DNA from: a virus
Virus record (IMG/VR): IMGVR_UViG_3300013006_000027
Coordinates: 1-64,000 of that record
Length of the DNA: 64,000 nucleotides
Reading direction: 5' to 3' (one strand)
Of the stretch, positions 29,480 to 50,327 are shown one piece after another. The notes under the pieces are model-generated. The model saw only the letters and a list, made by a program, of their open reading frames with translations, did not search any database and was not told where the DNA came from. The number at the start of each line of letters is the position of its first letter. The stretch's first letter is position 1. The translations under genes and the position numbers were made by a program.

Positions 29480-29493
29480 TAAGGAAAACTATT

Positions 29494-29685: not shown

Positions 29686-29686
29686 A

Positions 29687-31461: not shown

Positions 31462-32179
31462 CGCAATTTGGTCCGTGACCATGCCTGCCGAAATTTGATG
31501 AATCCAAAGTTTTACCACATTTCTCACAGGTCTTTTTTAATCTTGGCGGATGTTTCTTTGTCTTTTTAATAAGCCCTGTGAATATTTTACAATTTTCGCC
31601 GTGCGATCTGTTATAGTTAGCACTATCCATAACGTTATTACAATGGATACAGGTAATTTTTTTCTGAGAACAGTGTAAACCTCTTTCTATTTGTTCTAGA
31701 ACATGTTTTTTATGAAATTCTTTGTTTTGTAAAATCCATGAACCTTCTTTAATTTTTTGTTGGATTATTTTGTCTCGTTCTTTGTTAGCCTTAGTTAAGT
31801 TTTCTTTATTTTGAAAACCTAAAATACCTTTTTGTGCTCTCGCCTGGCTGGACCTTTTTTGAATTTCTCCACCCAATAAATGATGCGTCCCATTAAGAAC
31901 TCTCAGCTTATTTTGTTGTCTATTCAACCTCGTAAGTGTTTCAGGATCTACACCAAGTTTTCTACCAATTAATACACAGGCAGCGTAATCTTTTTGAAAA
32001 AGATGTATATCGTAATGTTCTTGTAAAGTGACCGCTATTAAATTAATTGGATCATTATTATTATGATTCCCATCTACATGATGAATTTCATAACTTCTTC
32101 CGTTTGGTTCTTTTGGAATTTTACCGTAATGATTTTCATAAATCCTACGGTGTTTGTTAGTACCGCAATAAATACACAT
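31454..32179 (-). CDS. HNH homing endonuclease with C-terminal Zn-ribbon repeats
   Basis: YEIHHVDGNHNNNDPINLIAVTLQEHYDIH; two CxxC...H...C motifs; GAGGAG RBS places start at 32179. Confidence 0.9.
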   Translation of the reverse strand: MCIYCGTNKHRRIYENHYGKIPKEPNGRSYEIHHVDGNHNNNDPINLIAVTLQEHYDIHLFQKDYAACVLIGRKLGVDPETLTRLNRQQNKLRVLNGTHHLLGGEIQKRSSQARAQKGILGFQNKENLTKANKERDKIIQQKIKEGSWILQNKEFHKKHVLEQIERGLHCSQKKITCIHCNNVMDSANYNRSHGENCKIFTGLIKKTKKHPPRLKKTCEKCGKTLDSSNFGRHGHGPNCVR

Positions 32180-32246
32180 GCTGATGCTCCTCAATAGCGT
32201 TAGAGTAGTTGGGAATCCCCATTCCGCGAACTACACTTTTATTTAT
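32168..32246 (+). ncRNA. candidate structured cis-antisense RNA / endonuclease leader, copy 1
   Basis: ATAAATA-NN-CAT-G-CTGATGCT-loop-AGCGTTAG-A-GTAGTT-GGGAAT-loop-ATTCC-GCG-AACTAC-ACTTTTATTTAT; covaries with copy at 50248-50327. Confidence 0.65.
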
Positions 32247-32334
32247 CCCGTTTAACTTGTATATTTGATTGTTATGTGCTATTCTTAACAATCATTAAAC
32301 AGCCGGCATGGAAGATATTCAAATAGGATAAAAT

Positions 32335-33207
32335 ATGTCAAATAATATTAATAAAGGGTATTCAACCCAAAATACAATGTGGAATCAACAAATACAACAA
32401 ATAACACCCCTAACTACTGCTCAAATTAGCAATATGACTGCAAGTTATAATCTTGCTAATGCTGTTAATTATCCCAGTATATCCTCTATTAATTTGAATG
32501 ACATTATAAAATCAACAACTGGTTATCATGATGGCAAGTACATTAAAACTTATCAAATTATTGAGGCTGCTGAAGATTTGTTGGTGTTAAGTGTAGCCCA
32601 TAAAAGATTATTGAGTGAAAAGATTTCAGCACTTGCAAAATCATTTGCATTTAGAAATATTCTGGATTCAGTTGTTTTTGAAAATTTAAACGATAATGAC
32701 CGAGAAATCGCTAACTCTATTAGAAAATATTATAGCCAACAAATAATAATGTGGGCGCTTAAAGGAATTAAATTAACAGCATTTAGAGAAGATTTAAAAA
32801 CTTATATTAATGGTGAAGGTAATAAATTTGTAGAAAATACTATTCCATTAGTAACTAAATTGCCTTATTTTTATGATTATGATATTAAATTAGATGAAAT
32901 AAAAAGAGAGTTTACTACAGATACCGAAAGGTTTAATCTTGCTACCAATAATCCTAGTAAGCGAAGTTTCATTTTAACTCCGATTAAATCACTATCTCGT
33001 AAAACTAAAAGAGTAAAGTGTATTGAATATTGGTTGAAAGATAATCATAATCAAGCCTATAAAATAGAAATTGAACATAATAATACTTTACAACACTTAT
33101 GGGATAAAACTTTTAATTCTAGTAAATTAGAAATATTGGGTTACATTAAAGTAAAACGTTTAGATGATTTAAATTATTTTCATATATTTGGTTGGGAAGT
33201 GTTGTAA
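32335..33207 (+). CDS. hypothetical protein
   Basis: 290-aa AT-rich ORF; upstream TTGTAT-17-TATTCT at 32257-32285. Confidence 0.75.
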   Translation: MSNNINKGYSTQNTMWNQQIQQITPLTTAQISNMTASYNLANAVNYPSISSINLNDIIKSTTGYHDGKYIKTYQIIEAAEDLLVLSVAHKRLLSEKISALAKSFAFRNILDSVVFENLNDNDREIANSIRKYYSQQIIMWALKGIKLTAFREDLKTYINGEGNKFVENTIPLVTKLPYFYDYDIKLDEIKREFTTDTERFNLATNNPSKRSFILTPIKSLSRKTKRVKCIEYWLKDNHNQAYKIEIEHNNTLQHLWDKTFNSSKLEILGYIKVKRLDDLNYFHIFGWEVL

Positions 33208-33281
33208 TTTTACTACATCTTGGAAAGTTGACAATAAATGGGCAAGGATGTATAATGAAATTATACGCTAAGAAAACGGAG
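33200..33281 (+). promoter_or_regulatory. repeated early promoter/RBS module with upstream palindrome
   Basis: TGTTG-N8-CTACA, 10 nt, TTGACA-ATAAAT..-TATAAT (33228-33256), then AGAAAACGGAG. Confidence 0.85.
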
Positions 33282-33287
33282 AAGCAA

Positions 33288-33497
33288 ATGGAATTTGAAG
33301 CTACAGTCATTAATACTATTAAACCAATACTAGGCTCAAAAGAATTGGTAGATTTTAGCTATGGCACATTGTTCGTAACCTGTGCCGAAGAGAAAGCCCG
33401 TTGTATTTTTCACACACTTTGTGACAATTTTGGCGGAGTCAACAAAGTCCGCATCAGCAAATGTGGTGAGGAATTTGCCTACGATTTTGTCGCTTGA
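33288..33497 (+). CDS. small early hypothetical protein
   Basis: Start trimmed to ATG after CGGAG; TGA lies inside next TTGACA. Confidence 0.7.
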   Translation: MEFEATVINTIKPILGSKELVDFSYGTLFVTCAEEKARCIFHTLCDNFGGVNKVRISKCGEEFAYDFVA

Positions 33498-33522
33498 CAA
33501 TAAATGGATTTGGATCTATAAT
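33494..33522 (+). promoter_or_regulatory. repeated early promoter
   Basis: TTGACA-ATAAATGGATTTGGATC-TATAAT. Confidence 0.85.
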
Positions 33523-33552
33523 ACTTGTATTGAATCAACAAAAGGTCACAAA

Positions 33553-33753
33553 ATGACACAGTTTATTGCTAAAGGTTACATTGAAAACGGTGACTCAGCC
33601 ATTCTTTGGAGAATGGCCGACTACCACTATCAACTGGAAGTTGGGTTTGGAACACCTAGACAACGGTCCATTGATTTGACGGATACCGAGTACTACGATG
33701 CTTATTGTATGTTGCAGGCAATTTGTATGGATAAAGTGGAAGTTGTTGCGTAA
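33553..33753 (+). CDS. small early hypothetical protein
   Basis: AAAGG RBS; MTQFIAKGYIENG. Confidence 0.7.
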   Translation: MTQFIAKGYIENGDSAILWRMADYHYQLEVGFGTPRQRSIDLTDTEYYDAYCMLQAICMDKVEVVA

Positions 33754-33800
33754 AAACAACATTACCAAAGGTTGACAATAAATCAGGTTCCCTGTATAAT
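33744..33800 (+). promoter_or_regulatory. repeated early promoter with upstream palindrome
   Basis: TGTTG-N8-CAACA (33744-33761), 10 nt, TTGACA-ATAAAT..-TATAAT (33772-33800). Confidence 0.85.
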
Positions 33801-33833
33801 AGAATCTTAGACAGTTAAACAACGGAGTTCAAA

Positions 33834-34091
33834 ATGCGTACACCAACTATCATCAACGGTCTGAAAAACTCTCAAAAATTCCGTGTGATTTTCAAGGGCG
33901 ATGGCTCTGAAAATGACATTGGTATGTACATGACGGTCAAGCAAATGTCCGAAATGTTTGCTACGACCAATGCCCGATCATTGTGTTATGAAGCCCTTGA
34001 GATGTTGGCTTCTGAGCGCCAATCTACAAAAGCCATTGTAGGGCTTGGTACTACAATCCGTGGTAAGCAAATTCAAATTGATTTGATTTAA
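33834..34091 (+). CDS. small early hypothetical protein
   Basis: CGGAG RBS, 85 aa. Confidence 0.75.
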   Translation: MRTPTIINGLKNSQKFRVIFKGDGSENDIGMYMTVKQMSEMFATTNARSLCYEALEMLASERQSTKAIVGLGTTIRGKQIQIDLI

Positions 34092-34102
34092 AAGGAAATA
34101 TA

Positions 34103-34375
34103 ATGAGTAGATTAGCGTTTATTGGCCGACCGTGGGTAGCGTTTGACGCAACAGATTTGCAACACCGAGCTTGGTTCGCAGAGTTTCGAAAATTAGGCAC
34201 TTGGGGAAAGTGTCCTGTGCGATTCATCATTCCAGATGAACACGGTGATCTTATCACTATGATCCAACGACGCTTGATTGATTATTATGTGGGTAAAGAA
34301 TTTGAACCAATTAATGTAACTTCAGCTCCGTTGACCTATAGTCCATTTGATACACCTAAGGCCGTAAATAATTAG
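34103..34375 (+). CDS. hypothetical protein
   Basis: AAGGA RBS; RPWVAFD...HR......TWGKCPVRF. Confidence 0.75.
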   Translation: MSRLAFIGRPWVAFDATDLQHRAWFAEFRKLGTWGKCPVRFIIPDEHGDLITMIQRRLIDYYVGKEFEPINVTSAPLTYSPFDTPKAVNN

Positions 34376-34383
34376 GCTTATTA

Positions 34384-35025
34384 ATGAAGCCTAGAATAGC
34401 ATTATTCCTTAATGATCCAGAATGTTCGGTCATCTGTTGCGCTGGTATATATGAGGCACTATCTGAACAGTATGACATTCGTATCTTTACCAAACACGAC
34501 CTTACTACAAAAATTTTAAAAAAAGCTGATATTATTGCCTTTCCAGGTGGAATTGGTAATAGTGGTTCTTTTGAAGAATTACTTGAAGATAAAGTAGATA
34601 TAGTAAAAGAATACCTAGCCAAAGGTGGCAGATATCTTGGTATTTGCATGGGAGCTTATTGGGCAGGGCATTATTACTTTGATATATTGGATGGAATCAA
34701 GGTTGTACAATATATCAAACGCCGCGATACCGAAATCAAACGTAGTTATGCTACCGTAGCCGAAGTGAATTGGAATGATCATAAAGAAAATATGTATTTC
34801 TACGATGGGTGTGCCTTTATATGTAAACCACATAAACAGAAAACTATTGCTACTTACGCCAACGGTGATCCAATGGCTATTATGCAAAATAGAATTGGCT
34901 TGATTGGTTGTCATCCTGAATCATCATTATCATGGTATCGCCAACCCTATTTAAAACAATATTGGCACGAATTTCGGCACCATGAATTATTATTAAATTT
35001 TGTTAATGACTTAATGGAAAGGTAA
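34384..35025 (+). CDS. class I glutamine amidotransferase-like protein (BPL_N-like)
   Basis: FPGG, GGRYLGICMGAY nucleophile elbow, GCHPE. Confidence 0.85.
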   Translation: MKPRIALFLNDPECSVICCAGIYEALSEQYDIRIFTKHDLTTKILKKADIIAFPGGIGNSGSFEELLEDKVDIVKEYLAKGGRYLGICMGAYWAGHYYFDILDGIKVVQYIKRRDTEIKRSYATVAEVNWNDHKENMYFYDGCAFICKPHKQKTIATYANGDPMAIMQNRIGLIGCHPESSLSWYRQPYLKQYWHEFRHHELLLNFVNDLMER

Positions 35026-35111
35026 TGAATAGTAATCAATTTGATCGTATAATTGCTATTTGGGGTTGGATTATTATAATCATTGTGCTACATTATGAAT
35101 ATGGTAGGTAA
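35025..35111 (+). CDS. possible 28-aa membrane peptide
   Basis: TAATG overlap; MNSNQFDRIIAIWGWIIIIIVLHYEYGR*. Confidence 0.35.
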   Translation: MNSNQFDRIIAIWGWIIIIIVLHYEYGR

Positions 35112-35183
35112 ATTATGATCAGGGTCTATATAAAATGATTTGGAGTGCCATACTGGACAACAAAAAGATACCAAGGAAAAACA

Positions 35184-35396
35184 ATGAGTAAAATTGTACT
35201 AAGTTGTGGGCACGAGGTAAACGACTTTGATCACGCTTATCATATTATGACCAAAGGTACAGATCGTTATGGTGAACGGGCTATTGTATATCAAACTGTC
35301 TGCGGACCTTGTGAAGATCGTTATAGACAACAGGGACAGATTTTTGACTTTGAAGAAGTAGCACATCAGTGGGTTGGTAAGGATAATACCGTATAA
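35184..35396 (+). CDS. small Zn-ribbon-like hypothetical protein
   Basis: AAGGA RBS; LSCGH ... CGPC. Confidence 0.7.
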   Translation: MSKIVLSCGHEVNDFDHAYHIMTKGTDRYGERAIVYQTVCGPCEDRYRQQGQIFDFEEVAHQWVGKDNTV

Positions 35397-35425
35397 AAAC
35401 AATATTAAACCTTTAAGGAATAATT

Positions 35426-35587
35426 ATGAATATTGAATTGGATCGTGAAACAATTAGTGATGAATTATATAACAAACTTCTACAGCATTTTGTGAACAAG
35501 GCAGTGGCACAAGGTGTGTTTGTGACTAAACACACTAAATTCGAAGACTGGGTACTAACCTGTCGTGTAGAAAACACAGTGCATTGA
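35426..35587 (+). CDS. small hypothetical protein (53 aa, not in ORF track)
   Basis: AAGGA RBS; MNIELDRETISDELYNKLL...; TGA inside TTGACA at 35584. Confidence 0.6.
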   Translation: MNIELDRETISDELYNKLLQHFVNKAVAQGVFVTKHTKFEDWVLTCRVENTVH

Positions 35588-35612
35588 CAGGAATTCTGAA
35601 GCCGTGTATACT
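35584..35612 (+). promoter_or_regulatory. early promoter
   Basis: TTGACA-17-TATACT. Confidence 0.8.
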
Positions 35613-35641
35613 TACTAACTTAACTGAAAAAAGGACCTAAC

Positions 35642-35881
35642 ATGTACGACGATAACCTTTCCGAAGATGATTTTGCTAACCTAGATTTTTTGATTGAACT
35701 AGATCCTCAAGGACTACAGGCATGGTTAGACGCCGCAGATAATGATGATTTGGTTTATGCCTTAGAAATTCTTAGGCCACTGATTACCAATTTGACTCTC
35801 AAGGAATTGGCAATCATGGATTTGGTCACTAACACCGATTTGGCAGATGAGGTGGTGGATCGTATCCGTAAGCTTAAGTAA
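35642..35881 (+). CDS. acidic small hypothetical protein
   Basis: AAGGA RBS, 79 aa. Confidence 0.75.
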   Translation: MYDDNLSEDDFANLDFLIELDPQGLQAWLDAADNDDLVYALEILRPLITNLTLKELAIMDLVTNTDLADEVVDRIRKLK

Positions 35882-35891
35882 ATTTCTGCAT

Positions 35892-35945
35892 TTGACAATA
35901 AATAGACACGGGCGTATAATAGACTTATACGCTGAGAAAACGGAG
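35892..35945 (+). promoter_or_regulatory. repeated early promoter/RBS module
   Basis: TTGACA-ATAAAT..-TATAAT ... CTGAGAAAACGGAG. Confidence 0.88.
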
Positions 35946-35951
35946 TTACAA

Positions 35952-36146
35952 ATGAGCGCAATGAGCAATCTTTATACAGAAATCCAAGAACTCCTTGAAG
36001 AAGGATTGTTCCCAACGGTGATCGCAAGTCGGCTTGGTGTTCCTCTGAATTGGGTAGATCAGGTCCGTATGGATTTGGATCCCCCTGATCTGTCACCTGA
36101 CAGTGAGGAGCAGTTCCAAGACTACGATTCAGCTATCGCAGGTTGA
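35952..36146 (+). CDS. small protein with possible HTH
   Basis: ELLEEG..P..IASRLGVPLNWV; TGA inside next TTGACA. Confidence 0.7.
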   Translation: MSAMSNLYTEIQELLEEGLFPTVIASRLGVPLNWVDQVRMDLDPPDLSPDSEEQFQDYDSAIAG

Positions 36147-36196
36147 CAATAAATGGGTTTGGGTGTATAATATATACATACACTGAGAAAACGGAG
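36143..36196 (+). promoter_or_regulatory. repeated early promoter/RBS module
   Basis: TTGACAATAAATGGGTTTGGGTGTATAATATATACATACACTGAGAAAACGGAG. Confidence 0.9.
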
Positions 36197-36202
36197 TAAG
36201 TA

Positions 36203-36397
36203 ATGGTAACACAAACACTGTATAGCAACTCGGTAGATTTTTTTAGCCGATTTGAAGCCGACACTTTTTCTATGGAAATCTTGGATGACACTACTGGTAA
36301 CTGGGAAGGTTACATTGGCGTCGGTGGCGAACTGGTTCAGGCTGCAGGCTTCGATGCTAGCACCGGTAACGGCTGGTACGACGATACCCTGATTTGA
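36203..36397 (+). CDS. small acidic hypothetical protein
   Basis: Bounded by two nearly identical promoter modules; TGA inside next TTGACA. Confidence 0.7.
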   Translation: MVTQTLYSNSVDFFSRFEADTFSMEILDDTTGNWEGYIGVGGELVQAAGFDASTGNGWYDDTLI

Positions 36398-36447
36398 CAA
36401 TAAATGGTTTTGGCTGTATAATATACACATACACTGAGAAAACGGAG
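36394..36447 (+). promoter_or_regulatory. repeated early promoter/RBS module
   Basis: TTGACAATAAATGGTTTTGGCTGTATAATATACACATACACTGAGAAAACGGAG, three differences from the 36143 copy. Confidence 0.9.
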
Positions 36448-36453
36448 TAACAA

Positions 36454-37488
36454 GTGGCACAAGTTCTAGTCAAATACGGCGAGTACCGTAATCTTCCCGT
36501 GATCAATACTAAATTCACCCTTGTCAAGGATTTTCATCAGGGCAAGAAAGGTGCTTACATCACTGTTAAGAACGATGGGCAATTTCCAATCGCTATTAGC
36601 GTGGTTAAGGTTAAAGTAAATAATGTTATGAATGTAGAATATCTTGATGGAGAACCTGTAATGGCGCAAGCTGTGGAATTTAAAGCACTGAAAACCCCCG
36701 CGGTCGAGACCGAGCAAGAAGCAATGGATCGGATCGCTACCCGTTTTCAAATTCTTGATGACATGTCCAAGGCATGTATCAACGGCGATATCCGTGCAAT
36801 GATTGTGTCAGGTCCTCCAGGAGTTGGTAAGTCATTTGGTGTTGAGACCCAGTTGGAAAAGGCTGCAATGTTTGACAAAATTGCAGGCAAACGTGTACGC
36901 TTTGAAATTGTCAAAGGTGCAATGACTCCAATTGGACTGTACTGCACACTGTACAAGTACTCTGATCCAAAGAACGTCCTAGTATTTGACGATTGCGATT
37001 CGGTCTTCCAAGATGATTTGGCTCTGAACATTCTCAAGGCTGCTCTTGACAGTGGTAAACGTCGGCGCATTTGCTGGAACTCGGATAACTCTATGCTTCG
37101 CCGTGAGGGTATCCCCGAGTCATTTGAATTCAAAGGTTCGGCAATTTTTATCACTAACTTGAAATTTGAGAACCTCAAATCCAAGAAATTGCAAGATCAC
37201 CTCGAGGCTCTGCAAAGTCGTTGTCACTTTCTTGACCTAACGATTGATACGGAGCGTGATAAGATTCTTCGGATCAAACAGGTTCATCGTGATTGTGACG
37301 GTGGATTGTTTAAAGACTATGATTTTGAAGGTGACGAGGGCGATCAAATCCTAAACTTCATGGAATCAAATAAGTCTAAACTCCGTGAATTGTCGCTACG
37401 CATGGCACTAAAGATTGCGGATCTGACTAAAGTGTCATCTTCAAACTGGCGTGTACTTGCGGAAAGCACTGTGATGAAACGCGGTTGA
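36454..37488 (+). CDS. AAA+/P-loop ATPase
   Basis: GPPGVGKS, VLVFDDCD, IFITN, ALQSR, ELSLR. Confidence 0.85.
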   Translation: MAQVLVKYGEYRNLPVINTKFTLVKDFHQGKKGAYITVKNDGQFPIAISVVKVKVNNVMNVEYLDGEPVMAQAVEFKALKTPAVETEQEAMDRIATRFQILDDMSKACINGDIRAMIVSGPPGVGKSFGVETQLEKAAMFDKIAGKRVRFEIVKGAMTPIGLYCTLYKYSDPKNVLVFDDCDSVFQDDLALNILKAALDSGKRRRICWNSDNSMLRREGIPESFEFKGSAIFITNLKFENLKSKKLQDHLEALQSRCHFLDLTIDTERDKILRIKQVHRDCDGGLFKDYDFEGDEGDQILNFMESNKSKLRELSLRMALKIADLTKVSSSNWRVLAESTVMKRG

Positions 37489-37515
37489 TAATTTTCTCTC
37501 TCTGAAGTGGTTTTT

Positions 37516-37541
37516 AGGGGGATTTAAATCCCCCTTTTTTT
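37516..37541 (+). terminator. intrinsic terminator
   Basis: agggggatt-ta-aatccccc-ttttttt. Confidence 0.85.
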
Positions 37542-37586
37542 GCCTTTTAACTTGAATAATTTTTTGGATGAGTGTATAATCTATCG

Positions 37587-38354
37587 ATGATAACAGGCAC
37601 CGTTAAGATAATAATTGACAATGATAAGATTTTAATGAGCTTACCATTTTCAAAAACATTTATTAAGGACTTGCGAAGTCAGGAAATCTTTGGTTTATAT
37701 TGGAATTCTGATGCTGTTAGATATGAAACAATATTTTCAACCGATACGTTAAAAAAACTAATCAATACCGTATCTAATCATTTTTCTACTATAGAATATT
37801 GTTCAAATGCAACCAGTGTTATTGATTGTATTAATGAATACACCTCGATTAAATATTGGCAACCTACATTAGTTTGTAGGAATGGTTTTCACTATATTGC
37901 GGCTAGTAATCAACATTTAGATGATGCAATAAAAGATATTCCGTTAAATAGTAATATAAAAACACTTTCGCTACTGGCAGAATACGGAATTGCAATTGAT
38001 CAACAATTAATTGGGTCCGATAATAAATTAATCTTTGCATCTAATTATTATGCTCAATTTGATTATAATAATACAGAGTGTATAACGTATTGGTTAAAGG
38101 AAATCGAGTGCGATTGTGTTATATTTGCAAGCAGACCTTATACTACCGTTGGTACATTTTTATACAATGAGTGTATAAAACAAGGATTACATGTTACTAT
38201 AATGCATGATGAATTGAATTTAGATTTGGAATACAAACAAGTTAAACGGCCGGTTATGATTAGATTTTTGTCTAACCAATATCCGTTCCCCCATAGTTTA
38301 AATATTAAAAAGGTAATTAAAATTACCAATTCTTTACCGGTTGATGTTAAATGA
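37587..38354 (+). CDS. hypothetical protein upstream of UvsW
   Basis: TTGAAT-17-TATAAT (37552-37580) favours start at ATG 37587. Confidence 0.7.
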   Translation: MITGTVKIIIDNDKILMSLPFSKTFIKDLRSQEIFGLYWNSDAVRYETIFSTDTLKKLINTVSNHFSTIEYCSNATSVIDCINEYTSIKYWQPTLVCRNGFHYIAASNQHLDDAIKDIPLNSNIKTLSLLAEYGIAIDQQLIGSDNKLIFASNYYAQFDYNNTECITYWLKEIECDCVIFASRPYTTVGTFLYNECIKQGLHVTIMHDELNLDLEYKQVKRPVMIRFLSNQYPFPHSLNIKKVIKITNSLPVDVK

Positions 38355-39808
38355 AGCAAGTTAAACTAGAAATAAAAGACGAAGTTAATTGTAAATTTGT
38401 CGGTCTAGAACTTAGTGAACGTAAAGCCCTTGTAAAAATGTTTGAATACGAGATACCTGGTGCAAGATATTTACCAAGTGTCCGTTTAGGTAGATGGAAT
38501 GGAAAAGTCAGCTATTTTAGTTTAGGTGGTAGTACATTCATCAATCTATTGCCTGAAATTATTCCTATATTGGATCGTGCTGGATACGACATTGAGTTGG
38601 AAGATATTAGAGAATATCGTACAAACTTTGAATTCAACCAAGTGTCTGAATCTACCTTTTCTCATAAAGTTTGGCCCAAAGGTCATCCTAAAGTAGGTGA
38701 GCCAATTGTACTTAGAGATTATCAGATACAAATTATTAATGACTTTTTAACTAATCCGCAAAGTCTACAAGAAATTGCAACTGGTGCAGGTAAGACTATC
38801 ATGACTGCCGCACTAAGTTACAGTATTGAAAAATACGGTCGTAGTATTGTAATCGTTCCAAATAAAAGTCTAGTTACACAAACTGAAGCAGATTATAAAA
38901 ACCTTGAACTAGATGTTGGTGTTTATTTTGGAGATAGAAAAGAAATAGGAAGAACTCATACTATATGTACTTGGCAAAGCCTTAACAATATGCTTAAAAA
39001 AACAAAAGCAGACGAGGCTGAAGTTCCAATTGGTGAATTTTTAGATGGTGTGGTATGTGTAATGGTTGATGAAGTACATCAAGCAAAAGCCGATGCTCTT
39101 AAAACATTATTAACTGGAGTAATGTCACATATCCCAATTCGTTGGGGATTGACTGGAACTATACCTAAAGCTAAATTTGAAGCACAGGCTTTGTTTGTTA
39201 GTTTAGGTCCCGTAATAAATAAACTCTCAGCTAGCGAATTACAAGATCAGGGAGTTCTTGCTAGGTGTCATGTTAACATTGTTCAATTGCAAGATAAGGT
39301 TGAATTTTCAAATTATCAAAGTGAATTAAAACATCTACTTGAAGACAAAAATAGATTAGATAAAATTGCAGACTTGATAGATAAGATTAAAGATTCAGGT
39401 AATACATTAATTTTAGTAGATAGGGTTAACGCAGGAAATGAAATCGTAAGTAGAATCCCCGACAGTGTTTTTATAAGTGGCGAAACAAAACTTACAGAGA
39501 GAAAGGATGAGTATGATAGTGTGGCGACTAGCAATGGAAAGGTTATTGTGGCGACTTACGGTGTGGCCGCTGTGGGTATTAATATCCCCCGCATTTTTAA
39601 TTTGGTTCTTATTGAGCCCGGAAAAAGCTTTGTCCGTGTTATACAAAGTATCGGGCGAGGCATTAGAAAGGCAGAGGACAAGGATCACGTAATGATTTGG
39701 GATATTACCTCTTCATGTAAATTTGCCAAACGTCATTTGACCCAACGAAAAGCTTTTTATAACGAAGCAAACTATCCTTTTGATGTTGAAAAATTAAATT
39801 ATAAATGA
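38351..39808 (+). CDS. uvsW: SF2 DNA helicase (UvsW-like)
   Basis: LRDYQ, ATGAGKT, VDEVH, GLTGT, GINIP, QSIGRGIR. Confidence 0.92.
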   Translation: MKQVKLEIKDEVNCKFVGLELSERKALVKMFEYEIPGARYLPSVRLGRWNGKVSYFSLGGSTFINLLPEIIPILDRAGYDIELEDIREYRTNFEFNQVSESTFSHKVWPKGHPKVGEPIVLRDYQIQIINDFLTNPQSLQEIATGAGKTIMTAALSYSIEKYGRSIVIVPNKSLVTQTEADYKNLELDVGVYFGDRKEIGRTHTICTWQSLNNMLKKTKADEAEVPIGEFLDGVVCVMVDEVHQAKADALKTLLTGVMSHIPIRWGLTGTIPKAKFEAQALFVSLGPVINKLSASELQDQGVLARCHVNIVQLQDKVEFSNYQSELKHLLEDKNRLDKIADLIDKIKDSGNTLILVDRVNAGNEIVSRIPDSVFISGETKLTERKDEYDSVATSNGKVIVATYGVAAVGINIPRIFNLVLIEPGKSFVRVIQSIGRGIRKAEDKDHVMIWDITSSCKFAKRHLTQRKAFYNEANYPFDVEKLNYK

Positions 39809-39820
39809 TATACTATTAAA

Positions 39821-42680: not shown

Positions 42681-42919
42681 AGAATAAATCGCGCCGAAAA
42701 AAATCAACAGATGATTGGCATACAGTGATTACTGGAAAAGAAAATCACTGGCAGGCAACTCAATGGTGTACTGAACAATTTGGCCGACGCTGGGGTGTTG
42801 TAGATAATCGAGATGGTATATGGTGTTGCTTTTGGGCTGGTCGAGAACAATTTAGTTCTTATAAATGGTATTTTGAAAATGAGTATGATATTATTTGGTT
42901 TACATTGAGGTGGGCATGA
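42671..42919 (+). CDS. small F.L.W-family protein
   Basis: WCTEQFG ... FENEYDIIWFTLRWA. Confidence 0.72.
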   Translation: MGIENKSRRKKSTDDWHTVITGKENHWQATQWCTEQFGRRWGVVDNRDGIWCCFWAGREQFSSYKWYFENEYDIIWFTLRWA

Positions 42920-43335: not shown

Positions 43336-43898
43336 TGAAATTTAAATCAGATGTAGATATTGACTTTGGAGATAGAGACTCTATTCTTCGGTATATTAAG
43401 CATACTCCTGCAGCTATGCGTAAAGTTAATCCTATAAGAAAACATGCTACAGGAATTTATGTAACAGATATTCCATATGATCCAATGAATCACATGGCTG
43501 CTATTGATTATGCAGATGCAGAAAATAGAGGTTATTTAAAATTAGATTTTCTTAATGTTCATGTTTACAATAAAGTAAAAAGTGAAGAACATTTAATTGA
43601 ATTGATGAGAGAACCTGATTGGTCTAATTTAAAAAATAAAGCTTTTGTAGAACAGTTAATTCATTTGAATAATCATTATAATTCAATACAAAAGATGCCT
43701 GAACCTATTAATAGTATACCTAGGTTAGCTATGTTTTTAGCTGTTATTAGACCTGCTAAAAAACATTTGATTGGTAGAACTTGGAATGAAATCGCAAAAA
43801 CTGTATGGGATAAGGGAGATGATGGATATCATTTTAAGAAGGCGCATGCCATTTCCTATTCATGGCTCGTAGCAGTGCATATGAATTTATTAGGGTAA
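43335..43898 (+). CDS. miniature DNA polymerase III alpha (DnaE)-like protein
   Basis: SDVDIDF, KHATGIY, GYLKLDFL, AVIRP, YHFKKAHAISY are collinear with DnaE motifs in only 187 aa. Confidence 0.75.
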   Translation: MKFKSDVDIDFGDRDSILRYIKHTPAAMRKVNPIRKHATGIYVTDIPYDPMNHMAAIDYADAENRGYLKLDFLNVHVYNKVKSEEHLIELMREPDWSNLKNKAFVEQLIHLNNHYNSIQKMPEPINSIPRLAMFLAVIRPAKKHLIGRTWNEIAKTVWDKGDDGYHFKKAHAISYSWLVAVHMNLLG

Positions 43899-44270
43899 TC
43901 TTTTTACTAGTGTAATACTACGTTTTTTGGATCTACGTTTATGTAGTTCAGCTAAACTACATACAGGACCATGAATTATAATTAAATTTTTATTTGTAAA
44001 GGTTCTTAAAAAAGGTCTAAACATAGACCATTCTTCTTTTAAAAATAAATTAATAGGTATTAATCTATTACTCTCCCACCACCATGTCTCGCCTAATTTT
44101 AAAAAAATGTTTTTGGCTTCTAAATCAAGTATTGCACCATAATCATATATAGTGGTTACAGTATCATCACGGTTTTGCACTATACCAACATAGTCTTGGT
44201 CGGCATAGGAGCACACTGTAATAAAAGGGTGATGCTCGGTTAATTTAGTAAAAAAATCTTTTTGAACCAT
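43890..44270 (-). CDS. hypothetical protein
   Basis: 126 aa; WWWESNR.IPINLFL; GTAAATA 6 nt before ATG. Confidence 0.75.
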   Translation of the reverse strand: MVQKDFFTKLTEHHPFITVCSYADQDYVGIVQNRDDTVTTIYDYGAILDLEAKNIFLKLGETWWWESNRLIPINLFLKEEWSMFRPFLRTFTNKNLIIIHGPVCSLAELHKRRSKKRSITLVKRLP

Positions 44271-44346
44271 ACAGAATATTTACTCTAGTTTACCCGAATT
44301 AATAATTAAATATATAGAGACTAAATACTAGAAGGAGCTCAAATTT

Positions 44347-45114
44347 GTGTACTCAACCGCAGTATTTCTCTATACGCAGCGACAAATTGTTGTTTTATTA
44401 TCAGGATATTCACCGAGGAGATATATGCCCGTATATGCCAAACCCCTAACCCTTCACAGAGGGGTAGATAACCAAATTCAATTTCAGTTCTTAAACCAAG
44501 AACAGAAACCCGTGGATATAACAGGTAAGCAAATTACATGTAGAATTATTAATTATGAAGGTAATGCAACACTTTTACAAAAGAGTCTTACCTTACAATT
44601 GCCCGCTACAGGTATAGCGGCTCTTGAAGTAAGTGCTGCTGATTTAGTAGCCATTGATCCACAAAAATGCTATTACTCATTAGAAATACCAGTTGGTGCT
44701 TTTGATTATCCTGTTTTCGTAGATCAAAATGCAGGTGCTAGGGGCGACATGTATATCGTTAATTCGGTATTACCTAGCTTTGTTCCCTCAATTGAAGTTA
44801 GTATTCCAACTGGGCAAGCATTTCCTAACAACAATCCAAATCAAAATTCTCAACCTGATGTTACTTATTATTCTAGTGTGATTGAAAGTAGTGATAGTTC
44901 CATACTTACCTTCCAAGTCAAACTAGAAGAATATTATGGGAACGTTGACATTCAAGGTTCTACTATAGTAGATGGAGATTGGTATCCAATTACTAATAAT
45001 ACATATGATGATGTTACTGACACAATTGGGTACACCATTACTGGATTTCATCCTTACGTAAGAATTGGATTTACTAGTAATGCAGGCGCGATAACCAATA
45101 TATTGTCTCGCTAG
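44347..45114 (+). CDS. putative baseplate/structural protein (BppU N-terminal-like)
   Basis: RGVDNQIQFQFLNQEQKPVDITG; late core and AGGAG RBS. Confidence 0.6.
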   Translation: MYSTAVFLYTQRQIVVLLSGYSPRRYMPVYAKPLTLHRGVDNQIQFQFLNQEQKPVDITGKQITCRIINYEGNATLLQKSLTLQLPATGIAALEVSAADLVAIDPQKCYYSLEIPVGAFDYPVFVDQNAGARGDMYIVNSVLPSFVPSIEVSIPTGQAFPNNNPNQNSQPDVTYYSSVIESSDSSILTFQVKLEEYYGNVDIQGSTIVDGDWYPITNNTYDDVTDTIGYTITGFHPYVRIGFTSNAGAITNILSR

Positions 45115-45162
45115 TTCTCCGTTGTAGTTGTTCAATTATTAAATTTATGCTATAATATAGGG

Positions 45163-46137
45163 ATGTTTGATATCCTATCTATTATTCCAGGTAAAAAAAA
45201 GAATACTCAATCTGGATGGACTTCTTTTAATGCCATATGTTGTGGGTATCGGGGGCATAAGCCAGACCAAAGAATGCGGGGTGGTATTAAGTTTGATGGC
45301 GATACTGCGTGGACTATGCATTGCTTTAACTGTCAATTTAAGTGCGGGTTTATCTTAGGTAAAAGTATTTCTCCAAAGACTAGACAGTTGCTACAATGGT
45401 CTGGAATCGAAGATTCTCAGATAACTAAATGGAGTCTAGAAAGTCTACAACATAAAGATTTGTTAGATTATATACGAGTAAAAAAACAAAAAAGTAGAAT
45501 TAAATTTCAGGATCATACATTACCTGAAGGAGAATTAATTGATATTAATAATCCTCAGCACACTGTATTCTCAGAGTATTTGTTGAGTAGAAGTATCAAT
45601 CCTAATAGTTATCCATTTTTAATTACCCCTCACGAAAAAGGTAGAAATGGTAATCGTATCATAATTCCATATACTTATAAAAATAAAATAGTTGGACATA
45701 CTAGTAGATTCTTAGATAATAGAATCCCCAAATATATTAATGAGCAACAACCCGGTTATGTTTTTAATATTGATAGTCAAAAACCTGATTGGCAAGTATG
45801 TATTGTTACTGAGGGAATATTTGATGCACTAAGTATTGATGGGGTGGCAGTAATGCACAATGATATTAATAACGACCAAGCAACATTATTGGGATCATTG
45901 AATAAGCCAATCATACTAGTTCCTGATAGAGATAATACAGGATTAGCGTTATGTGATAAAGCATTAGAGTTAGGATATAAAATTAGTTTACCAAATTGGG
46001 ATATAGATGTTAAAGATGTAAATGATGCAGTAGTAAAATATGGAAAATTACCAACATTGTTAAGTATATTGCAGGCAGCAACTAGTAGTAAAATTAAGAT
46101 AGAATTAAAGAGGAAGCAAATTGCTAAAGGAATATAA
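45163..46137 (+). CDS. DNA primase (T4 gp61-like)
   Basis: Zn domain (CC...HCFNC), RIIIP, TOPRIM VTEGIFDALS, PDRD, KDVND. Confidence 0.9.
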   Translation: MFDILSIIPGKKKNTQSGWTSFNAICCGYRGHKPDQRMRGGIKFDGDTAWTMHCFNCQFKCGFILGKSISPKTRQLLQWSGIEDSQITKWSLESLQHKDLLDYIRVKKQKSRIKFQDHTLPEGELIDINNPQHTVFSEYLLSRSINPNSYPFLITPHEKGRNGNRIIIPYTYKNKIVGHTSRFLDNRIPKYINEQQPGYVFNIDSQKPDWQVCIVTEGIFDALSIDGVAVMHNDINNDQATLLGSLNKPIILVPDRDNTGLALCDKALELGYKISLPNWDIDVKDVNDAVVKYGKLPTLLSILQAATSSKIKIELKRKQIAKGI

Positions 46138-47539
46138 TAGGGACGTTCAATTACTTTTCTTACAAATGATGTTAACCAATGCAGAATTGTATACTAGAGT
46201 AATGAATATTATGAACTCGGATAATTTTGATAGGTCAATTAGACCAGTTGCCGAGTTTATTAAAGAATATAGTACTAAGTATAGCCTGTTGCCCGACATT
46301 ACTCAAATCAAAGCGACTACTGGTATTGACGTTGAGCTAATTGAAGATTTTAGTGATAAACATACTGAATGGTTTCTTGCAGAATTTGAATCATTTACTA
46401 AGCGTCAAGAATTAGAACGTGCGATTCTTAAATCAGCCGACTTGTTAGAGAAGGGTGACTTTGGGCCAGTTGAAAAATTAATTAAAGATGCGGTTCAAAT
46501 CAGTTTACAACGTGACATGGGTACTGACTACTTTGCAGATCCTAAAGCACGTATTAACAAATATTTCAATGCAGGTGGACAACAAAGTACAGGGTGGCCT
46601 CAACTTGATAAACTGTTATATGGTGGTTTTAGTCGTGGTGAACTGAATATTTTTGCAGGTGGATCAGGATCAGGTAAGTCATTAGTAATGATGAACATTG
46701 CACTAAATTGGTTGCAAATGGGTTTGAGCGGAGTATATGTATCATTAGAACTTTCAGAAGAGTTAACTTCACTAAGAACCGATGCAATGTTAACTAGTAT
46801 GAGTACTAGGGATATTCGTAAAGACATTGATTCTACTGAACTCAGAGTTAAAATGGCTGGCAAAAAAGCTGGTCAATATAGAGTTAAAGGTCTTCCAGCG
46901 CAAAGTAATGTCAACGATATTCGTTCATACTTAAAAGAAGTACAAATTCAAACAGGTATGCGTGTAGATTTTGTGATGATTGATTATTTAGATTTAGTTA
47001 TGCCTGTATCTGTTAAAGTTAATCCTAATGATCAGTTTATTAAAGACAAATATGTTTCAGAAGAATTACGTAACTTGGCAAAAGAGTTAGGTATCCTTAT
47101 GGTAACAGCAAGTCAATTGAATAGGTCAGCAGTAGAAGAAATTGAATTTGATCATAGTCATATTGCAGGTGGTATCAGTAAAATTAACACAGCGGATAAC
47201 GTGTTTGGTATTTTCACAAGCCGTAGTATGCGTGAACGTGGACAATATCAAATTCAATGTATGAAAAGTCGTAGTAGTACTGGTGTTGGTCAAAAGATTG
47301 ATTTAGATTATAATATAGAAACTATGCGTATTACTGATAGTGATCCTGAAGGTCATGGAGAACAGCAAAATTCATATACTCCTAAACTCAATCCTAACAA
47401 TATAATGAGTACATTAAAAGCAACATCTATGGTAATAGATCAGTCTACGGGAGAAATATTAGAGCCTGAAAACAAGCGAGTAGTTGCAGATGTGCAAGGA
47501 AGTAAATTAAAATCATTACTTAATTCACTAAAGAAATAA
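46121..47539 (+). CDS. replicative DnaB-family helicase (T4 gp41-like)
   Basis: GGSGSGKS, SLELS, IDYLDL, TASQLNR, MKSR. Confidence 0.93.
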   Translation: MLKEYNRDVQLLFLQMMLTNAELYTRVMNIMNSDNFDRSIRPVAEFIKEYSTKYSLLPDITQIKATTGIDVELIEDFSDKHTEWFLAEFESFTKRQELERAILKSADLLEKGDFGPVEKLIKDAVQISLQRDMGTDYFADPKARINKYFNAGGQQSTGWPQLDKLLYGGFSRGELNIFAGGSGSGKSLVMMNIALNWLQMGLSGVYVSLELSEELTSLRTDAMLTSMSTRDIRKDIDSTELRVKMAGKKAGQYRVKGLPAQSNVNDIRSYLKEVQIQTGMRVDFVMIDYLDLVMPVSVKVNPNDQFIKDKYVSEELRNLAKELGILMVTASQLNRSAVEEIEFDHSHIAGGISKINTADNVFGIFTSRSMRERGQYQIQCMKSRSSTGVGQKIDLDYNIETMRITDSDPEGHGEQQNSYTPKLNPNNIMSTLKATSMVIDQSTGEILEPENKRVVADVQGSKLKSLLNSLKK

Positions 47540-47564
47540 TTATTACATATAGAATAAATATAAT

Positions 47565-47822
47565 ATGCAGAAAAAAACTCGTAGCCTTTTGGAAGAATTA
47601 GAAGCTTTAGGCGATAATCGTGATGTAAATCATATTATTGAGAACCGAGCCCACAACATTATTACCAGTGCTATTAATTTATTAGAACTAATTAATAAGC
47701 ATTATGATAGTGAGAGATCGGAAATCTTAGAAAGAAAGCTATTAAGTGCTATAAAAGGCAGAGACCAAACTAGGTTTGCAAAATCATTAAGGAAGAAAAA
47801 TGAAGCTCCAGGAAATCAATGA
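47565..47822 (+). CDS. hypothetical late protein
   Basis: ATAAATA 4 nt before ATG. Confidence 0.75.
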   Translation: MQKKTRSLLEELEALGDNRDVNHIIENRAHNIITSAINLLELINKHYDSERSEILERKLLSAIKGRDQTRFAKSLRKKNEAPGNQ

Positions 47823-48987
47823 GGCATCGGTAAATGAAGAAGGGATCATAGGGCGTGGTGTTGCCGCTGCTCAGCAGCTTGGTTCTAAACTAATTGGTAG
47901 TGAGTTAAGCCGAATGTCTGTCACTGATAGACATGCCATGAATATCTTTATTAAAGATTTTCTTGATAAAGTTTCAGTTGCATTAGGTGTTGCTGTTAAA
48001 AGTAGCGTAGTTGACCCTACTATAGTAGATACTTCAAGTGTAAGCAGTGGGGGAGGAGCAATTAAACCTACTGGTGCACCATTAAGTCAGTTAGGAAAAC
48101 AAACACAACAACAGATGTTAGCTCAACGAGCGGCTAATGCAGCTCCAGGTACAGGTAGAAAACCTTCAGCTCCTGGTCAACCAGCAGCACCGACGGCTGC
48201 TGCCCCAACAGCACCCACATTACCAGCAGCGCCGGCGGCTCCCGCGACACCATTAACTGATTTTGGCACTGTTGGGGCCAAAAGAGCGGAAAGGGCTCAG
48301 GCAAGAGCAGCGATTCCTGATCCAGATCTTAATGTAGGAAGAAGAGAACCTAAGGTAGGCTCACTAAGTGAAACACAATATCAAAAATTAAATTCAATTT
48401 TTGAAAGCATTCTTCTTACCGAAGCAAAAAGCATAGCTACTTTTGTCAAAGATTTCCTTAATACCAATGTACCACAACTTAATACTAAAGATCCTGATAT
48501 TGCCAAAGCCTTAGATAAACTTATTGCTCAAGTTCAAACTGATTGGACTAAAGATAAAGGTAAAAGTGCATTCACCAAATTAGCACAAGCAGCTTACCTC
48601 TTGGCTAAAGTTCCAACCTCTAGTGGCACTGGTGGACAACTAGGTTCCAAAACACAAGGACCAGCAGGTGCACAAGGACAAGCAGGTGCACAAGGTACTA
48701 GAACTCAGGGAGCAGGTGCTACTCAAGCAGCTCCTGATATAGCACAATATACTAATAATATATTGTCACAAATTAATAGAATGCAAAGAAATGATGCGGA
48801 TGATTTAGATGCTATTATTATGAATTCTTTGCGTAGATTATATAAAGTTAACTCTTCTGCCTATATGGACACTGCACAACATCTTAAAACAATGCTCCAA
48901 ACTAGTGCGCCAGTTACACCTGCACCTACACAAGGCCCACCCAATCTATCAATAGCTAGAGAATCTAAAAACAGAGTTAGAAAATGA
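47800..48987 (+). CDS. putative internal head protein with Ala/Pro- and Gly/Gln-rich segments
   Basis: MKLQEINE start; PAAP runs; short GxxGxx run. Confidence 0.65.
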   Translation: MKLQEINEASVNEEGIIGRGVAAAQQLGSKLIGSELSRMSVTDRHAMNIFIKDFLDKVSVALGVAVKSSVVDPTIVDTSSVSSGGGAIKPTGAPLSQLGKQTQQQMLAQRAANAAPGTGRKPSAPGQPAAPTAAAPTAPTLPAAPAAPATPLTDFGTVGAKRAERAQARAAIPDPDLNVGRREPKVGSLSETQYQKLNSIFESILLTEAKSIATFVKDFLNTNVPQLNTKDPDIAKALDKLIAQVQTDWTKDKGKSAFTKLAQAAYLLAKVPTSSGTGGQLGSKTQGPAGAQGQAGAQGTRTQGAGATQAAPDIAQYTNNILSQINRMQRNDADDLDAIIMNSLRRLYKVNSSAYMDTAQHLKTMLQTSAPVTPAPTQGPPNLSIARESKNRVRK

Positions 48988-50141
48988 ATTTGACTGAATC
49001 ATTAGCCTCTCTTAGAAATAAGTTAGAAACTATTGATGTCCCTTTATTAACTGAAGACAAGGGACACTTGGATCATCCTGAGGATTTGGTATTTTTAGGA
49101 GATGTTACTGGTGCTAATCGGGCAGTAGATGCAATTGCAAAAACAGTTACAAATCCAAAAACTGTTACTATTAAGTGGGATGGATATCCTGCTCTTATAT
49201 TTGGGCGTGATACTAATGGTAAATTTAGTATCATGGACAAACATATGTTCAACAAGAAAGATGGTACTGGAAGACAAGTTTATAGTCCTGAAGAATTTAG
49301 AAAATATGATATAGACCGTGGGGTAGATCGTTCTGATTTACATAGACTAATAGCTGAAATTTGGTCTGGTCTAGAAAAAGCAAGTAATGGAACTAAAGGT
49401 TATTACTGGGGAGACTTACTCTTCAATAAGCCACTAGCCGATAATAATGGATTGTACACATTCAAAGCTAACCCTAATGGCATAACATACACCGTAGACA
49501 TTAATAGCGACACAGGTAAGTTGATGAAAGGCAAAACTGCTGGTATAGCAGTACATCAATATATAACTCCTGAGGCCCCCAATACTGATTCTGCTGTGCC
49601 ATTGGATGGAACGATAGGACAGCTTAAGAACAATAGTAACGTTGCTATTATTCCTAGCAAAATGCCTATTACTCCTAACTTGAAACTAGATCAAAAGTTA
49701 TTAGCTAAAACTAAACAAGATATTTTAAAATATGGTCAGGCTGTTGACCAGTTAATGAATTCAGCACCGCAAGCTAGAAATACATTTAATCAACTGTTTA
49801 CCGTGTATATTAATAAGCGTATTGTAGGTGGTAACTTAAATGATTTATTATCAGGATTTATGGAGTTTATCGCAAGTAGACCCATGACTGACAAGATGAG
49901 AGCCAAGATAGATGAGCATCTACAAGTTAATAAAGAAGGGTTGATTGGTGCATTTACTATATGGATGGATATTTATAATCTTAAGATGAATGTAGTTGAA
50001 CAACTAAACAAAGCCGCTGAAGCTAGTCCTGTAAAAGGATATTTACAAGATGGTACACAAACTCAAGAAGGATTTGTTTCTAATGGTCTTAAGTTTGTAG
50101 ATAGAATGGGCTTCAGCAGACAGAACCTCCAGGGTCGCTGA
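48984..50141 (+). CDS. DUF6267-like protein with ligase-type nucleotidyltransferase motifs
   Basis: HLDHPEDL, TIKWDG, WGDLL, QEGFV, LKFVDR. Confidence 0.6.
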   Translation: MNLTESLASLRNKLETIDVPLLTEDKGHLDHPEDLVFLGDVTGANRAVDAIAKTVTNPKTVTIKWDGYPALIFGRDTNGKFSIMDKHMFNKKDGTGRQVYSPEEFRKYDIDRGVDRSDLHRLIAEIWSGLEKASNGTKGYYWGDLLFNKPLADNNGLYTFKANPNGITYTVDINSDTGKLMKGKTAGIAVHQYITPEAPNTDSAVPLDGTIGQLKNNSNVAIIPSKMPITPNLKLDQKLLAKTKQDILKYGQAVDQLMNSAPQARNTFNQLFTVYINKRIVGGNLNDLLSGFMEFIASRPMTDKMRAKIDEHLQVNKEGLIGAFTIWMDIYNLKMNVVEQLNKAAEASPVKGYLQDGTQTQEGFVSNGLKFVDRMGFSRQNLQGR

Positions 50142-50259
50142 ATAATTTCCACCCTTTATAACTTTTTCTGTCGCCCCTAGACAGCGCAGAAGTATGCCCT
50201 TGACCTAGATATTTGAGGTCAGTTACATTGTGGGTTTTCTTGTATAGATAAATAGTCAT
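50113..50259 (-). pseudogene. internally deleted GIY-YIG homing endonuclease (48 aa, not in ORF track)
   Basis: MTIYLYKKTHNVTDLKYLGQ (GIY-YIG start) fused in frame to GHTSALSRGDRKSYKGWKL (NUMOD1-like end); AAGGA RBS. Confidence 0.75.
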
Positions 50260-50327
50260 GCTGATGTTCCTTTACAACATTAGAGTAGTTGGGGTTTCCG
50301 AGGCCCGCGAACTACACTTTTATTTAT
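50248..50327 (+). ncRNA. candidate structured cis-antisense RNA / endonuclease leader, copy 2
   Basis: ATAAATA-NN-CAT-G-CTGATGTT-loop-AACATTAG-A-GTAGTT-GGGGTTT-ccg-AGGCCC-GCG-AACTAC-ACTTTTATTTAT. Confidence 0.65.

Follow-up and report, generated by a model that had tools for sequence, protein, structure and literature searches.

A portable two-hairpin leader shared by unrelated homing endonuclease genes of aquatic jumbo phages and the cis-antisense RNA predicted from it

Why two homing endonuclease genes of unrelated families should begin with practically the same leader is the question raised by a 64,000-nucleotide (nt) stretch of viral DNA, positions 1 to 64,000 of the IMG/VR record IMGVR_UViG_3300013006_000027, which was analysed as a whole and is referred to here as the window. 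An element of about 80 positions precedes an HNH endonuclease gene at 32168-32246 (copy 1) and the remnant of a GIY-YIG endonuclease gene at 50248-50327 (copy 2); an initial annotation made from the letters of the window had singled out this pair, and both copies were confirmed. They are the only two in the complete source record of 78,427 bp. Judged from its sequence, the element is a new RNA family, akin to the regulatory leaders of homing endonucleases and to the cis-antisense control of enzymes of selfish elements, with an antisense transcript being predicted.

The two copies are identical at 64 of their approximately 80 positions and have an exact 23-mer in common. Read along the plus strand, each is composed of ATAAATA, two or three bases, CAT (the start codon of the minus-strand nuclease gene), hairpin 1, a single A, hairpin 2, ACTTT and TATTTAT (Table 1). 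The terminal TATTTAT is an ATAAATA when read towards the nuclease and lies 60-61 nt ahead of the start codon in both copies. Between the copies, C-G is replaced by U-A and U-G by U-A in hairpin 1, the loop of which is complementary to the Shine-Dalgarno (SD) sequence; in hairpin 2 the GTAGTT/AACTAC outer stem and the GCG bulge are constant and the inner stem is exchanged. These traits had been read correctly by the initial annotation, and covariation of both hairpins recurs across 106 copies of the family described below. The plus-strand fold was better than shuffled sequences in both copies (z of -2.2 to -3.0), and the minus strand was no better than its shuffles (z of -0.5 to -1.2).

A search of IMG/VR with an exact 21-mer from the right half of the element retrieved at least 117 loci and a pattern anchored in the left half at least 118 stretches, mostly new relative to the 21-mer set, giving a family of at least 214 loci in IMG/VR with the same anatomy. 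The covariance model (R1) was built from 37 gap-free copies (alignment A3), a MAFFT alignment (A2) being set aside because the variable stems were misaligned in it. Among the matches listed, a search with R1 gave 115 full-length matches in 100 sources, and in five jumbo-phage records of 259-361 kb it counted 13, 4, 13, 8 and 3 copies. Six of the 13 copies of one of these genomes (G001) are readable by a simple pattern; they differ in their variable stems and lead different nuclease families. The 96-nt element had no match in 50,697 cultured-phage records at E values up to 1. Among 185,579 bacterial and archaeal species genomes, four contigs of metagenome-assembled genomes (L215-L218) carry it, all binned as Bacteroidota, an assignment that has no bearing on host or prophage status. 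A scan of the window with Rfam 15 at gathering thresholds returned models of transfer-messenger RNA (tmRNA) only, at 12943-13314, and the hits of a permissive scan of 32100-32320 were all at noise level, with E values of 0.56 or more and 12-18 bits where the gathering scores are 50-75, so that no described Rfam family matches the element.

In every case examined, full-length copies stand at the 5' end of a nuclease gene, and the distance from the first base of the gene-facing ATAAATA to the ATG is 65-75 nt (at least 117 loci). The Pfam scan of 76 complete open reading frames (ORFs) downstream of the element recognised NUMOD3 (16), HNH_3 (12), HNH (8) and HNH_5 (5), as well as GIY-YIG, DUF559 (Vsr-like), PvuRts1I-like N and I-TevI DNA-binding domains; the remaining ORFs mostly have GIY-YIG-like N-termini, as judged by eye. 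The element is a portable module common to unrelated nuclease families, and in this respect the interpretation given by the initial annotation stands, at sequence level, on a much larger sample. Of 44 contexts, 28 have the nuclease running against the neighbouring genes and 16 have it co-directional with them, hence an RNA from the plus strand must have a promoter of its own rather than arise by read-through from a host gene, which fits the ATAAATA inside the nuclease gene.

A second class of loci consists of solo elements, which comprise hairpin 2 and the sense promoter or less and are devoid of hairpin 1 and of a nuclease (L004/L022/L054/L075, L029:1137-1157, L048:5359-5379 and L009/L071). 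They are probably the scars of lost endonuclease genes.

Selection on the pairing itself was assessed on 106 distinct copies aligned to the covariance model. Standard pairs fill 96.4% of the cells, double-sided changes occur at 14 of the 20 pairs (196 cells), and pairing falls to 30-56% when the 3' partners are slid as a control. None of 500 column shuffles reached any of the five measures, although it counts against this statistic that the copies are mutually related, for which reason the shuffles overstate independence and the values are not probabilities. Despite the kinship, the number of distinct pair types, such as AU, UA, GC and CG at a single inner pair of hairpin 2, makes a strong case for pairing selection in both hairpins. 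Both the covariation and the association with nucleases, which the initial annotation had proposed to check with a covariance model, hold in the wider alignment.

The strand on which this pairing is favoured can be deduced from the wobble pairs. G-U cells outnumber A-C cells on the plus strand by 258 to 34, or by 152 to 34 when one invariant G-U pair is omitted, in agreement with the asymmetry first noticed in the window. At the polymorphic pair of hairpin 1 (columns 23-56) the states are UG 64, UA 38, CG 2, AU 1 and GC 1, and CA, the wobble state of the sense strand, is found in none. The mean free energy of hairpin 1 is -6.7 kcal/mol on the plus strand versus -3.1 kcal/mol on the minus strand, the former being better in all 85 of 85 copies, and over the whole leader span the plus-strand fold is better in 94 of 105. 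A change from G-C to G-U in hairpin 2, seen in 16 copies, is tolerated on the plus strand only. Collectively, the G-U asymmetry points to pairing on the strand that is antisense to the nuclease. A small protein encoded on the plus strand was considered and rejected, because its CATG start is lost in CATT and CATA variants and changes in stem length shift the frame between copies.

The established leaders of this kind act on the other strand. Homing endonuclease genes of T-even phages (I-TevI, I-TevII, I-TevIII, segB) and mobE of Aeh1 resemble the present genes in having a TATAAATA-type late promoter directly upstream and a structured RNA at the ribosome binding site, with presumed restriction of the nuclease (PMC2988022). 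By analogy, the element could be a sense-strand leader only, in which the TATTTA that follows the start codon owes its conservation to pairing with the late-promoter sequence in read-through mRNA and a three-way junction hides the SD and AUG until late transcripts arise that are devoid of the 5' half. Such control is established for all five of these genes (PMC2988022), ATAAATA and TATTTAT are mutually complementary and form a closing helix in the minimum free energy (MFE) structure of copy 2, and hairpin 2 taken alone is about equally stable on either strand. In those systems, however, the promoter lies inside the hairpin and the SD is strongly sequestered on longer transcripts, whereas neither hairpin of the element contains the promoter, which precedes hairpin 2 by 5 nt and is part of no stem, and the SD of the element occupies the loop of a hairpin that is weak in the sense strand. 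Across 160 sense leaders the probability of the SD and AUG being unpaired was 0.46 in read-through and 0.43 in late transcripts; the accessibility of the ribosome binding site is in effect unchanged by where the transcript starts. The AUAAAUA/UAUUUAU closing helix was rejected as a selected stem, having a median pair probability of 0.05 and, at its outermost and sole variable pair, no covariation. Furthermore, when read on the sense strand, hairpin 1 is interrupted in the majority of copies by one or two A-C mismatches, and its covariation keeps G-U on the other strand, and read-through is itself improbable where the nuclease is antisense to its neighbours, as in 28 of the 44 contexts. The T4 hairpins are also gene-specific, unlike the element, which is one conserved sequence family on at least five nuclease families. 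We therefore regard a purely sense-acting leader as unlikely.

A published description that fits the element was likewise read in the sense-strand direction. Dassa et al. 2009 report, in the main text of their paper, hairpins in 15 of 16 5' untranslated regions of free-standing GIY-YIG and Vsr-like endonucleases residing in 'fractured genes' of ocean and lake metagenomes; ten of the hairpins include TATAAATA, two conserved motifs pair in the stem, one locus retains the hairpin after loss of the endonuclease, and the structure is read there as a translational attenuator of the sense strand (PMC2677866). The present set likewise contains a DUF559 (Vsr-like) nuclease and remnants, and the motif described in that main text is very probably the same or a sister motif, the two being likened by description only. 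The main text makes no mention of a two-hairpin architecture, strand asymmetry, a promoter in codons 2-4 or the scale met with here (hundreds of loci, up to 13 per genome). The novelty claimed for the element must be reduced to this extent: it is absent from Rfam, but hairpins combined with TATAAATA ahead of free-standing endonucleases had been reported in 2009, as far as that text goes, and what appear to be new are the family size, the covarying two-hairpin model, the evidence for folding of the antisense strand and the promoter in codons 2-4. A literature search with sequence strings of the element found unrelated primers only.

The two heptamers flanking the hairpins are promoter-like. Although 94% of the source record is coding, ATAAATA on its plus strand is intergenic at 21 of 27 sites, of which 18 lie 2-53 nt ahead of a start codon, very large genes included; two of the six coding sites are those inside the two nuclease starts. 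At the level of the motif it is the dominant intergenic upstream sequence of the record. CTAAATA is also enriched in intergenic DNA (6 intergenic and 5 coding sites, e.g. 23893, 44322, 50845, 62625, 65171 and 72945 of the record), and GTAAATA and TTAAATA show no intergenic enrichment. On this sequence evidence ATAAATA is taken as the upstream promoter motif of this phage; it matches the T4-type late promoter TATAAATA, the cyanophage form of which is NATAAATA (PMC2984593), and it would fit the gp55 homologue of related phages. A gp55-type late sigma factor (phrog_234, E of about 1e-22) is encoded by three of three near-complete relatives; it was not found in a first PHROG pass over 10 ORFs of the source record, which is about 23% complete.

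On the sense side, the search that put no constraint on the right half found a conserved TATTTAT invariably separated from hairpin 2 by 5 nt of variable spacer. Read in the direction of the gene, this motif begins with A in 90 copies, with C in 14 and with G in 2, A and C being the forms enriched intergenically. On the outward side, TAAATA in codons 2-4 is conserved in practically 100% of the 106 distinct copies and is read in three frames, namely M-x-I-Y (60), M-I-F (11) and M-Y-L (10). All 60 M-x-I-Y genes end codon 2 in T (background 32%) and all 60 use ATT for isoleucine (39%), and 56 of the 60 use TAT for tyrosine (66%); in the other frames leucine is TTA in 10 of 10 (38%) and isoleucine ATA in 11 of 11 (44%). 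Three reading frames together with fixed synonymous sites imply that the motif is held at the nucleotide and not the protein level, and a protein-level cause of M-x-I-Y is excluded by the same observations. Where the frame offset is smaller, one or two extra bases separate the start codon from hairpin 1, and the distance from TAAATA to hairpin 1 (GCTG) is thereby kept at 4-6 nt, mostly 5. The proposal of the initial annotation that a promoter-like ATAAATA faces the gene and an opposite one is written into codons 2-4 at constant spacing was thereby borne out. Transcripts from T4 late promoters begin about 6 nt past the last A of TATAAATA; should the same spacing apply here, the first base of either transcript would also be that of a hairpin.

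Taken together, these features suggest a portable cassette of late promoter and leader that also encodes a cis-antisense RNA of 64-78 nt over the SD and start codon, comparable to RNA-OUT of IS10, a reading to which we give even credence. On the nuclease strand, a T4-type late promoter (ATAAATA) would drive a leader running from the base of hairpin 2 through a GGAG SD to the start codon, and the resulting sense transcript would be the nuclease mRNA. Facing it at a distance of 72 bp, the late-promoter core in codons 2-4 would most likely fire outward on the opposite strand. The transcript predicted from it would start at the base of hairpin 1, fold into two stable hairpins with a U-rich tail, and be fully complementary to the nuclease leader, with the anti-SD lying in the hairpin 1 loop. 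By pairing with the nuclease mRNA, this RNA could then block ribosome binding or create a substrate for RNase III, and in either case nuclease expression would be kept low. Family-wide, the plus-strand MFE structure has two hairpins in 105 of 105 copies, over a length of 64-78 nt. As for the control function proposed by the initial annotation, we infer the plus-strand transcription from the internal motif, both RNA ends including termination, and the repression of the nuclease.

Several observations weigh against this reading. The base preceding the outward TAAATA is G or T in about a quarter of the copies, forms that are not enriched intergenically in the source record. The U-run past hairpin 2 is partly conserved, the sequence there being A-Y-Y-W-W-UAUUUAU, of which the part beyond the variable ACTTT spacer is complementary to the sense promoter; the U-rich end that the initial annotation had noted is present in the window copies but is less conserved than was assumed. 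A scan for consensus terminators, which does not handle bulged stems, called neither copy. Pfam models of gp33 and gp45 (PF16805, PF02916) had no match in the source record and five large relatives, a result made uninformative by their equal failure in the controls; on the strength of these missing matches, themselves mirrored in the controls, the late-transcription machinery of the relatives may be only partly T4-like. Both promoters would be late, and a temporal switch is accordingly not evident. Three lake-water metatranscriptome runs contained 9-11% of the words of window 28000-36000 and a few exact short contigs of the phage; all of these contigs lie outside 32005-32271 and, being blind to strand and ends, have no bearing on the transcript either way.

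Short stable stem-loop antisense RNAs of this design are known from insertion sequences. RNA-OUT of IS10 is 69 nt long, blocks ribosome binding and acts more strongly with copy number (PMC5006887), and art200 of IS200 is another antisense RNA acting on the enzyme of a selfish element (PMC4513863). The predicted RNA, at 64-78 nt similar in size to the 69 nt of IS10, would have in common with these an outward promoter just inside the enzyme gene and the coverage of the translation initiation region. There is, on the other hand, no homology of sequence or structure; the target is a homing endonuclease instead of a transposase, the promoters are of the phage late type, the overlap would be the entire leader (about 55 nt) with a two-hairpin RNA, and the RNA of the element, like its repressing effect, is a prediction from sequence. 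Among phages, antisense RNA across a homing endonuclease gene has been detected by experiment in the T4-like cyanophage S-PM2, where it is called CfrI (PMC2984593). CfrI differs in measuring about 225 nt and in connecting psbA with the endonuclease gene, and it forms no portable, conserved 5'-end cassette of many endonuclease families.

The flanks of the element carry a further signal. An outward sigma70-like promoter (at least 10 of 12 matches) lies at most 70 nt past the element in 37 of 174 distinct contexts (21%) versus 7-8 (4-5%) in reverse-complemented or shuffled controls, often as TTGAC about 10 nt past TATTTAT (e.g. L012, L093 and L104), and in many cases the gene that follows may receive an early promoter from the cassette.

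Such promoters are what one would expect if the element were an insulator and promoter module without antisense control, the plus-strand hairpins and U-rich tail of which stop antisense-running transcription or stabilise 3' or 5' ends and the outward promoters of which restore expression of the downstream gene. It would then resemble the PeSL (promoter-early stem-loop) cassettes, small repeated units of promoter and stem-loop which Arbiol et al. are said to have described in 2010 in T4-type phages and which reportedly could mediate modular shuffling, and it would lower the cost of insertion and provide homology for shuffling. PeSLs are reportedly sigma70 early promoters with terminators that are not tied to endonuclease genes, whereas the promoters of the element are late-type and face to face, and its cassette includes an SD and start codon. 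The U-rich stretch after hairpin 2 and the many plus-strand genes that begin 40-110 nt past the element speak for insulation, as does the embedding of promoters for neighbour genes in T4 endonuclease cassettes (PMC2988022). Nevertheless, insulation leaves the covariation and the anti-SD loop of hairpin 1 unexplained; the element is equally intact in the 16 co-directional contexts, in which there is no host gene that the plus strand could benefit; the variable U-run and the uncalled terminator tell against it too; and the sigma70-like promoter is confined to about one-fifth of contexts. We consider this explanation rather improbable.

Strand-asymmetric pairing could also stem from folded DNA, for G-T pairs are tolerated in single-stranded hairpins that act in recombination, replication or mobility, as in the ends of IS200/IS605 or integron attC sites, and the invariant outer stem and bulge of hairpin 2 would also suit recognition of one folded strand. 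The element is, however, confined to the 5' end of the nuclease gene, with no counterpart at the 3' end; the linked HNH, GIY-YIG and Vsr-like nucleases move by double-strand-break repair and are not HUH or integrase enzymes; and the position of the element is exactly that of the promoter, SD and start codon. A role at DNA level is consequently considered highly improbable.

The phage that harbours both copies is a fragment of a jumbo phage with a CheckV completeness of about 23%, and its products matched in Pfam and PHROG include UvsX, a UvsY-like protein, primase, DnaB and a DUF6267 protein. Among the relatives that carry the element are complete genomes of 333-361 kb, and terminal repeats are present in one of these. 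The tmRNA gene on the plus strand of the window scored 106 bits with the Rfam model beta_tmRNA and 110 bits with tmRNA_permuted; its betaproteobacterial type may be a hint to the host lineage.

With reference to Table 1, the gene led by copy 1 matches PF13392 (HNH_3) at 1.1e-10 and phrog_12324 ('intron-like DNA endonuclease') at 1.5e-31, with weak DNA matches to I-TevIII-like genes of T4-like phages. The end of a UvsY-like gene (TAGMEDFTI-stop, window 31429-31461) recurs after the HNH cassette as an orphan TAGMEDIQIG-stop (32299-32331); from this duplication the inserted cassette is taken to span about 31454-32298, having brought or left a recoded 3' end of its target gene. The interval from the sense promoter to the right-hand end of this cassette contains a 9-bp hairpin (TGATTGTTA...TAACAATCA) at 32266-32295. 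In the gene led by copy 2, an internal deletion between two LGQ repeats has fused residues 1-20 to residues 200-228 of a 230-residue GIY-YIG nuclease, so that the remnant retains the leader together with 20 initial and 29 terminal codons; at its 3' end it runs into the end of the DUF6267 gene, which is encoded on the opposite strand. One relative (L037:5104-5793) has the intact GIY-YIG gene flanked by the same two genes, and in BLASTP the remnant is 90% identical to its 230-residue protein over the C-terminal 29 residues and also matches over the N-terminal 20. The surroundings of copy 2 had no match among cultured-phage records.

Table 1 Coordinates in the window of the two copies of the element and of the genes that they lead; promoter and RNA entries are predictions
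Feature	Position	Strand	Remarks
Copy 1, outward ATAAATA	32168-32174	+	In nuclease codons 2-4; putative antisense-RNA promoter; core as in the genome-wide upstream motif
Copy 1, start codon CAT	32177-32179	- (gene)	
Copy 1, hairpin 1	32181-32203	+	8-bp stem
Copy 1, CTCCTC in hairpin 1 loop	32187-32192	+	Complement of nuclease SD GAGGAG
Copy 1, hairpin 2	32205-32234	+	Outer stem GTAGTT/AACTAC, GCG bulge, variable covarying inner stem
Copy 1, gene-facing ATAAATA (TATTTAT on plus)	32240-32246	-	Late-promoter-like, faces HNH gene; 5 nt from base of hairpin 2
Copy 1, predicted antisense RNA, ~67 nt	32180-32246	+	Hairpins 1 and 2, U-rich tail; both ends putative; fold z = -3.0
Copy 2, outward ATAAATA	50248-50254	+	Codons 2-4 (M-T-I-Y) of remnant
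Copy 2, start codon CAT	50257-50259	- (gene)	
Copy 2, hairpin 1	50261-50283	+	
Copy 2, hairpin 2	50285-50315	+	
Copy 2, gene-facing ATAAATA (TATTTAT on plus)	50321-50327	-	Faces remnant ORF
Copy 2, predicted antisense RNA, ~68 nt	50260-50327	+	Tail overlaps sense promoter; z = -2.2; 92.9 bits with covariance model R1
HNH homing endonuclease, free-standing, 241 aa	31454-32179	-	I-TevIII-like; starts M-C-I-Y; antisense to neighbours
GIY-YIG homing endonuclease remnant, 48 aa	50113-50259	-	In-frame internal deletion

Overall, large phages have homing endonucleases as their main selfish elements, and containment of the toxicity of these enzymes is known only for a handful of T-even genes, where it is gene-specific and acts on the sense mRNA. 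Here one conserved RNA-level module is found on at least five unrelated nuclease families and is spread over hundreds of genomes of uncultured phages. The covariance model provides a sensitive marker for free-standing endonucleases and their decayed remnants in metagenomes, and the cassette, at 80 bp, could be a compact part for constructs in which the expression of a toxic nuclease has to be tightly limited. Somewhat more tentatively than the cassette reading itself, the element could represent a previously unrecognised family of cis-antisense small RNAs of about 65 nt that acts throughout a large clade of gp55-encoding aquatic jumbo phages as the universal and portable brake on their homing endonucleases, in which case a mobile-element family would be defined by its RNA and not by its nuclease. 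Because up to 13 cassettes of one genome have invariant segments in common, trans-acting effects of the RNAs may occur as well, in the form of multicopy inhibition or of cross-talk between co-infecting phages. If true, this would be the first RNA-OUT-like system for homing endonucleases and a new, abundant family of phage small RNAs absent from Rfam, and the spread of the module over unrelated nucleases implies that regulatory cassettes, not nuclease genes alone, are the moving units.

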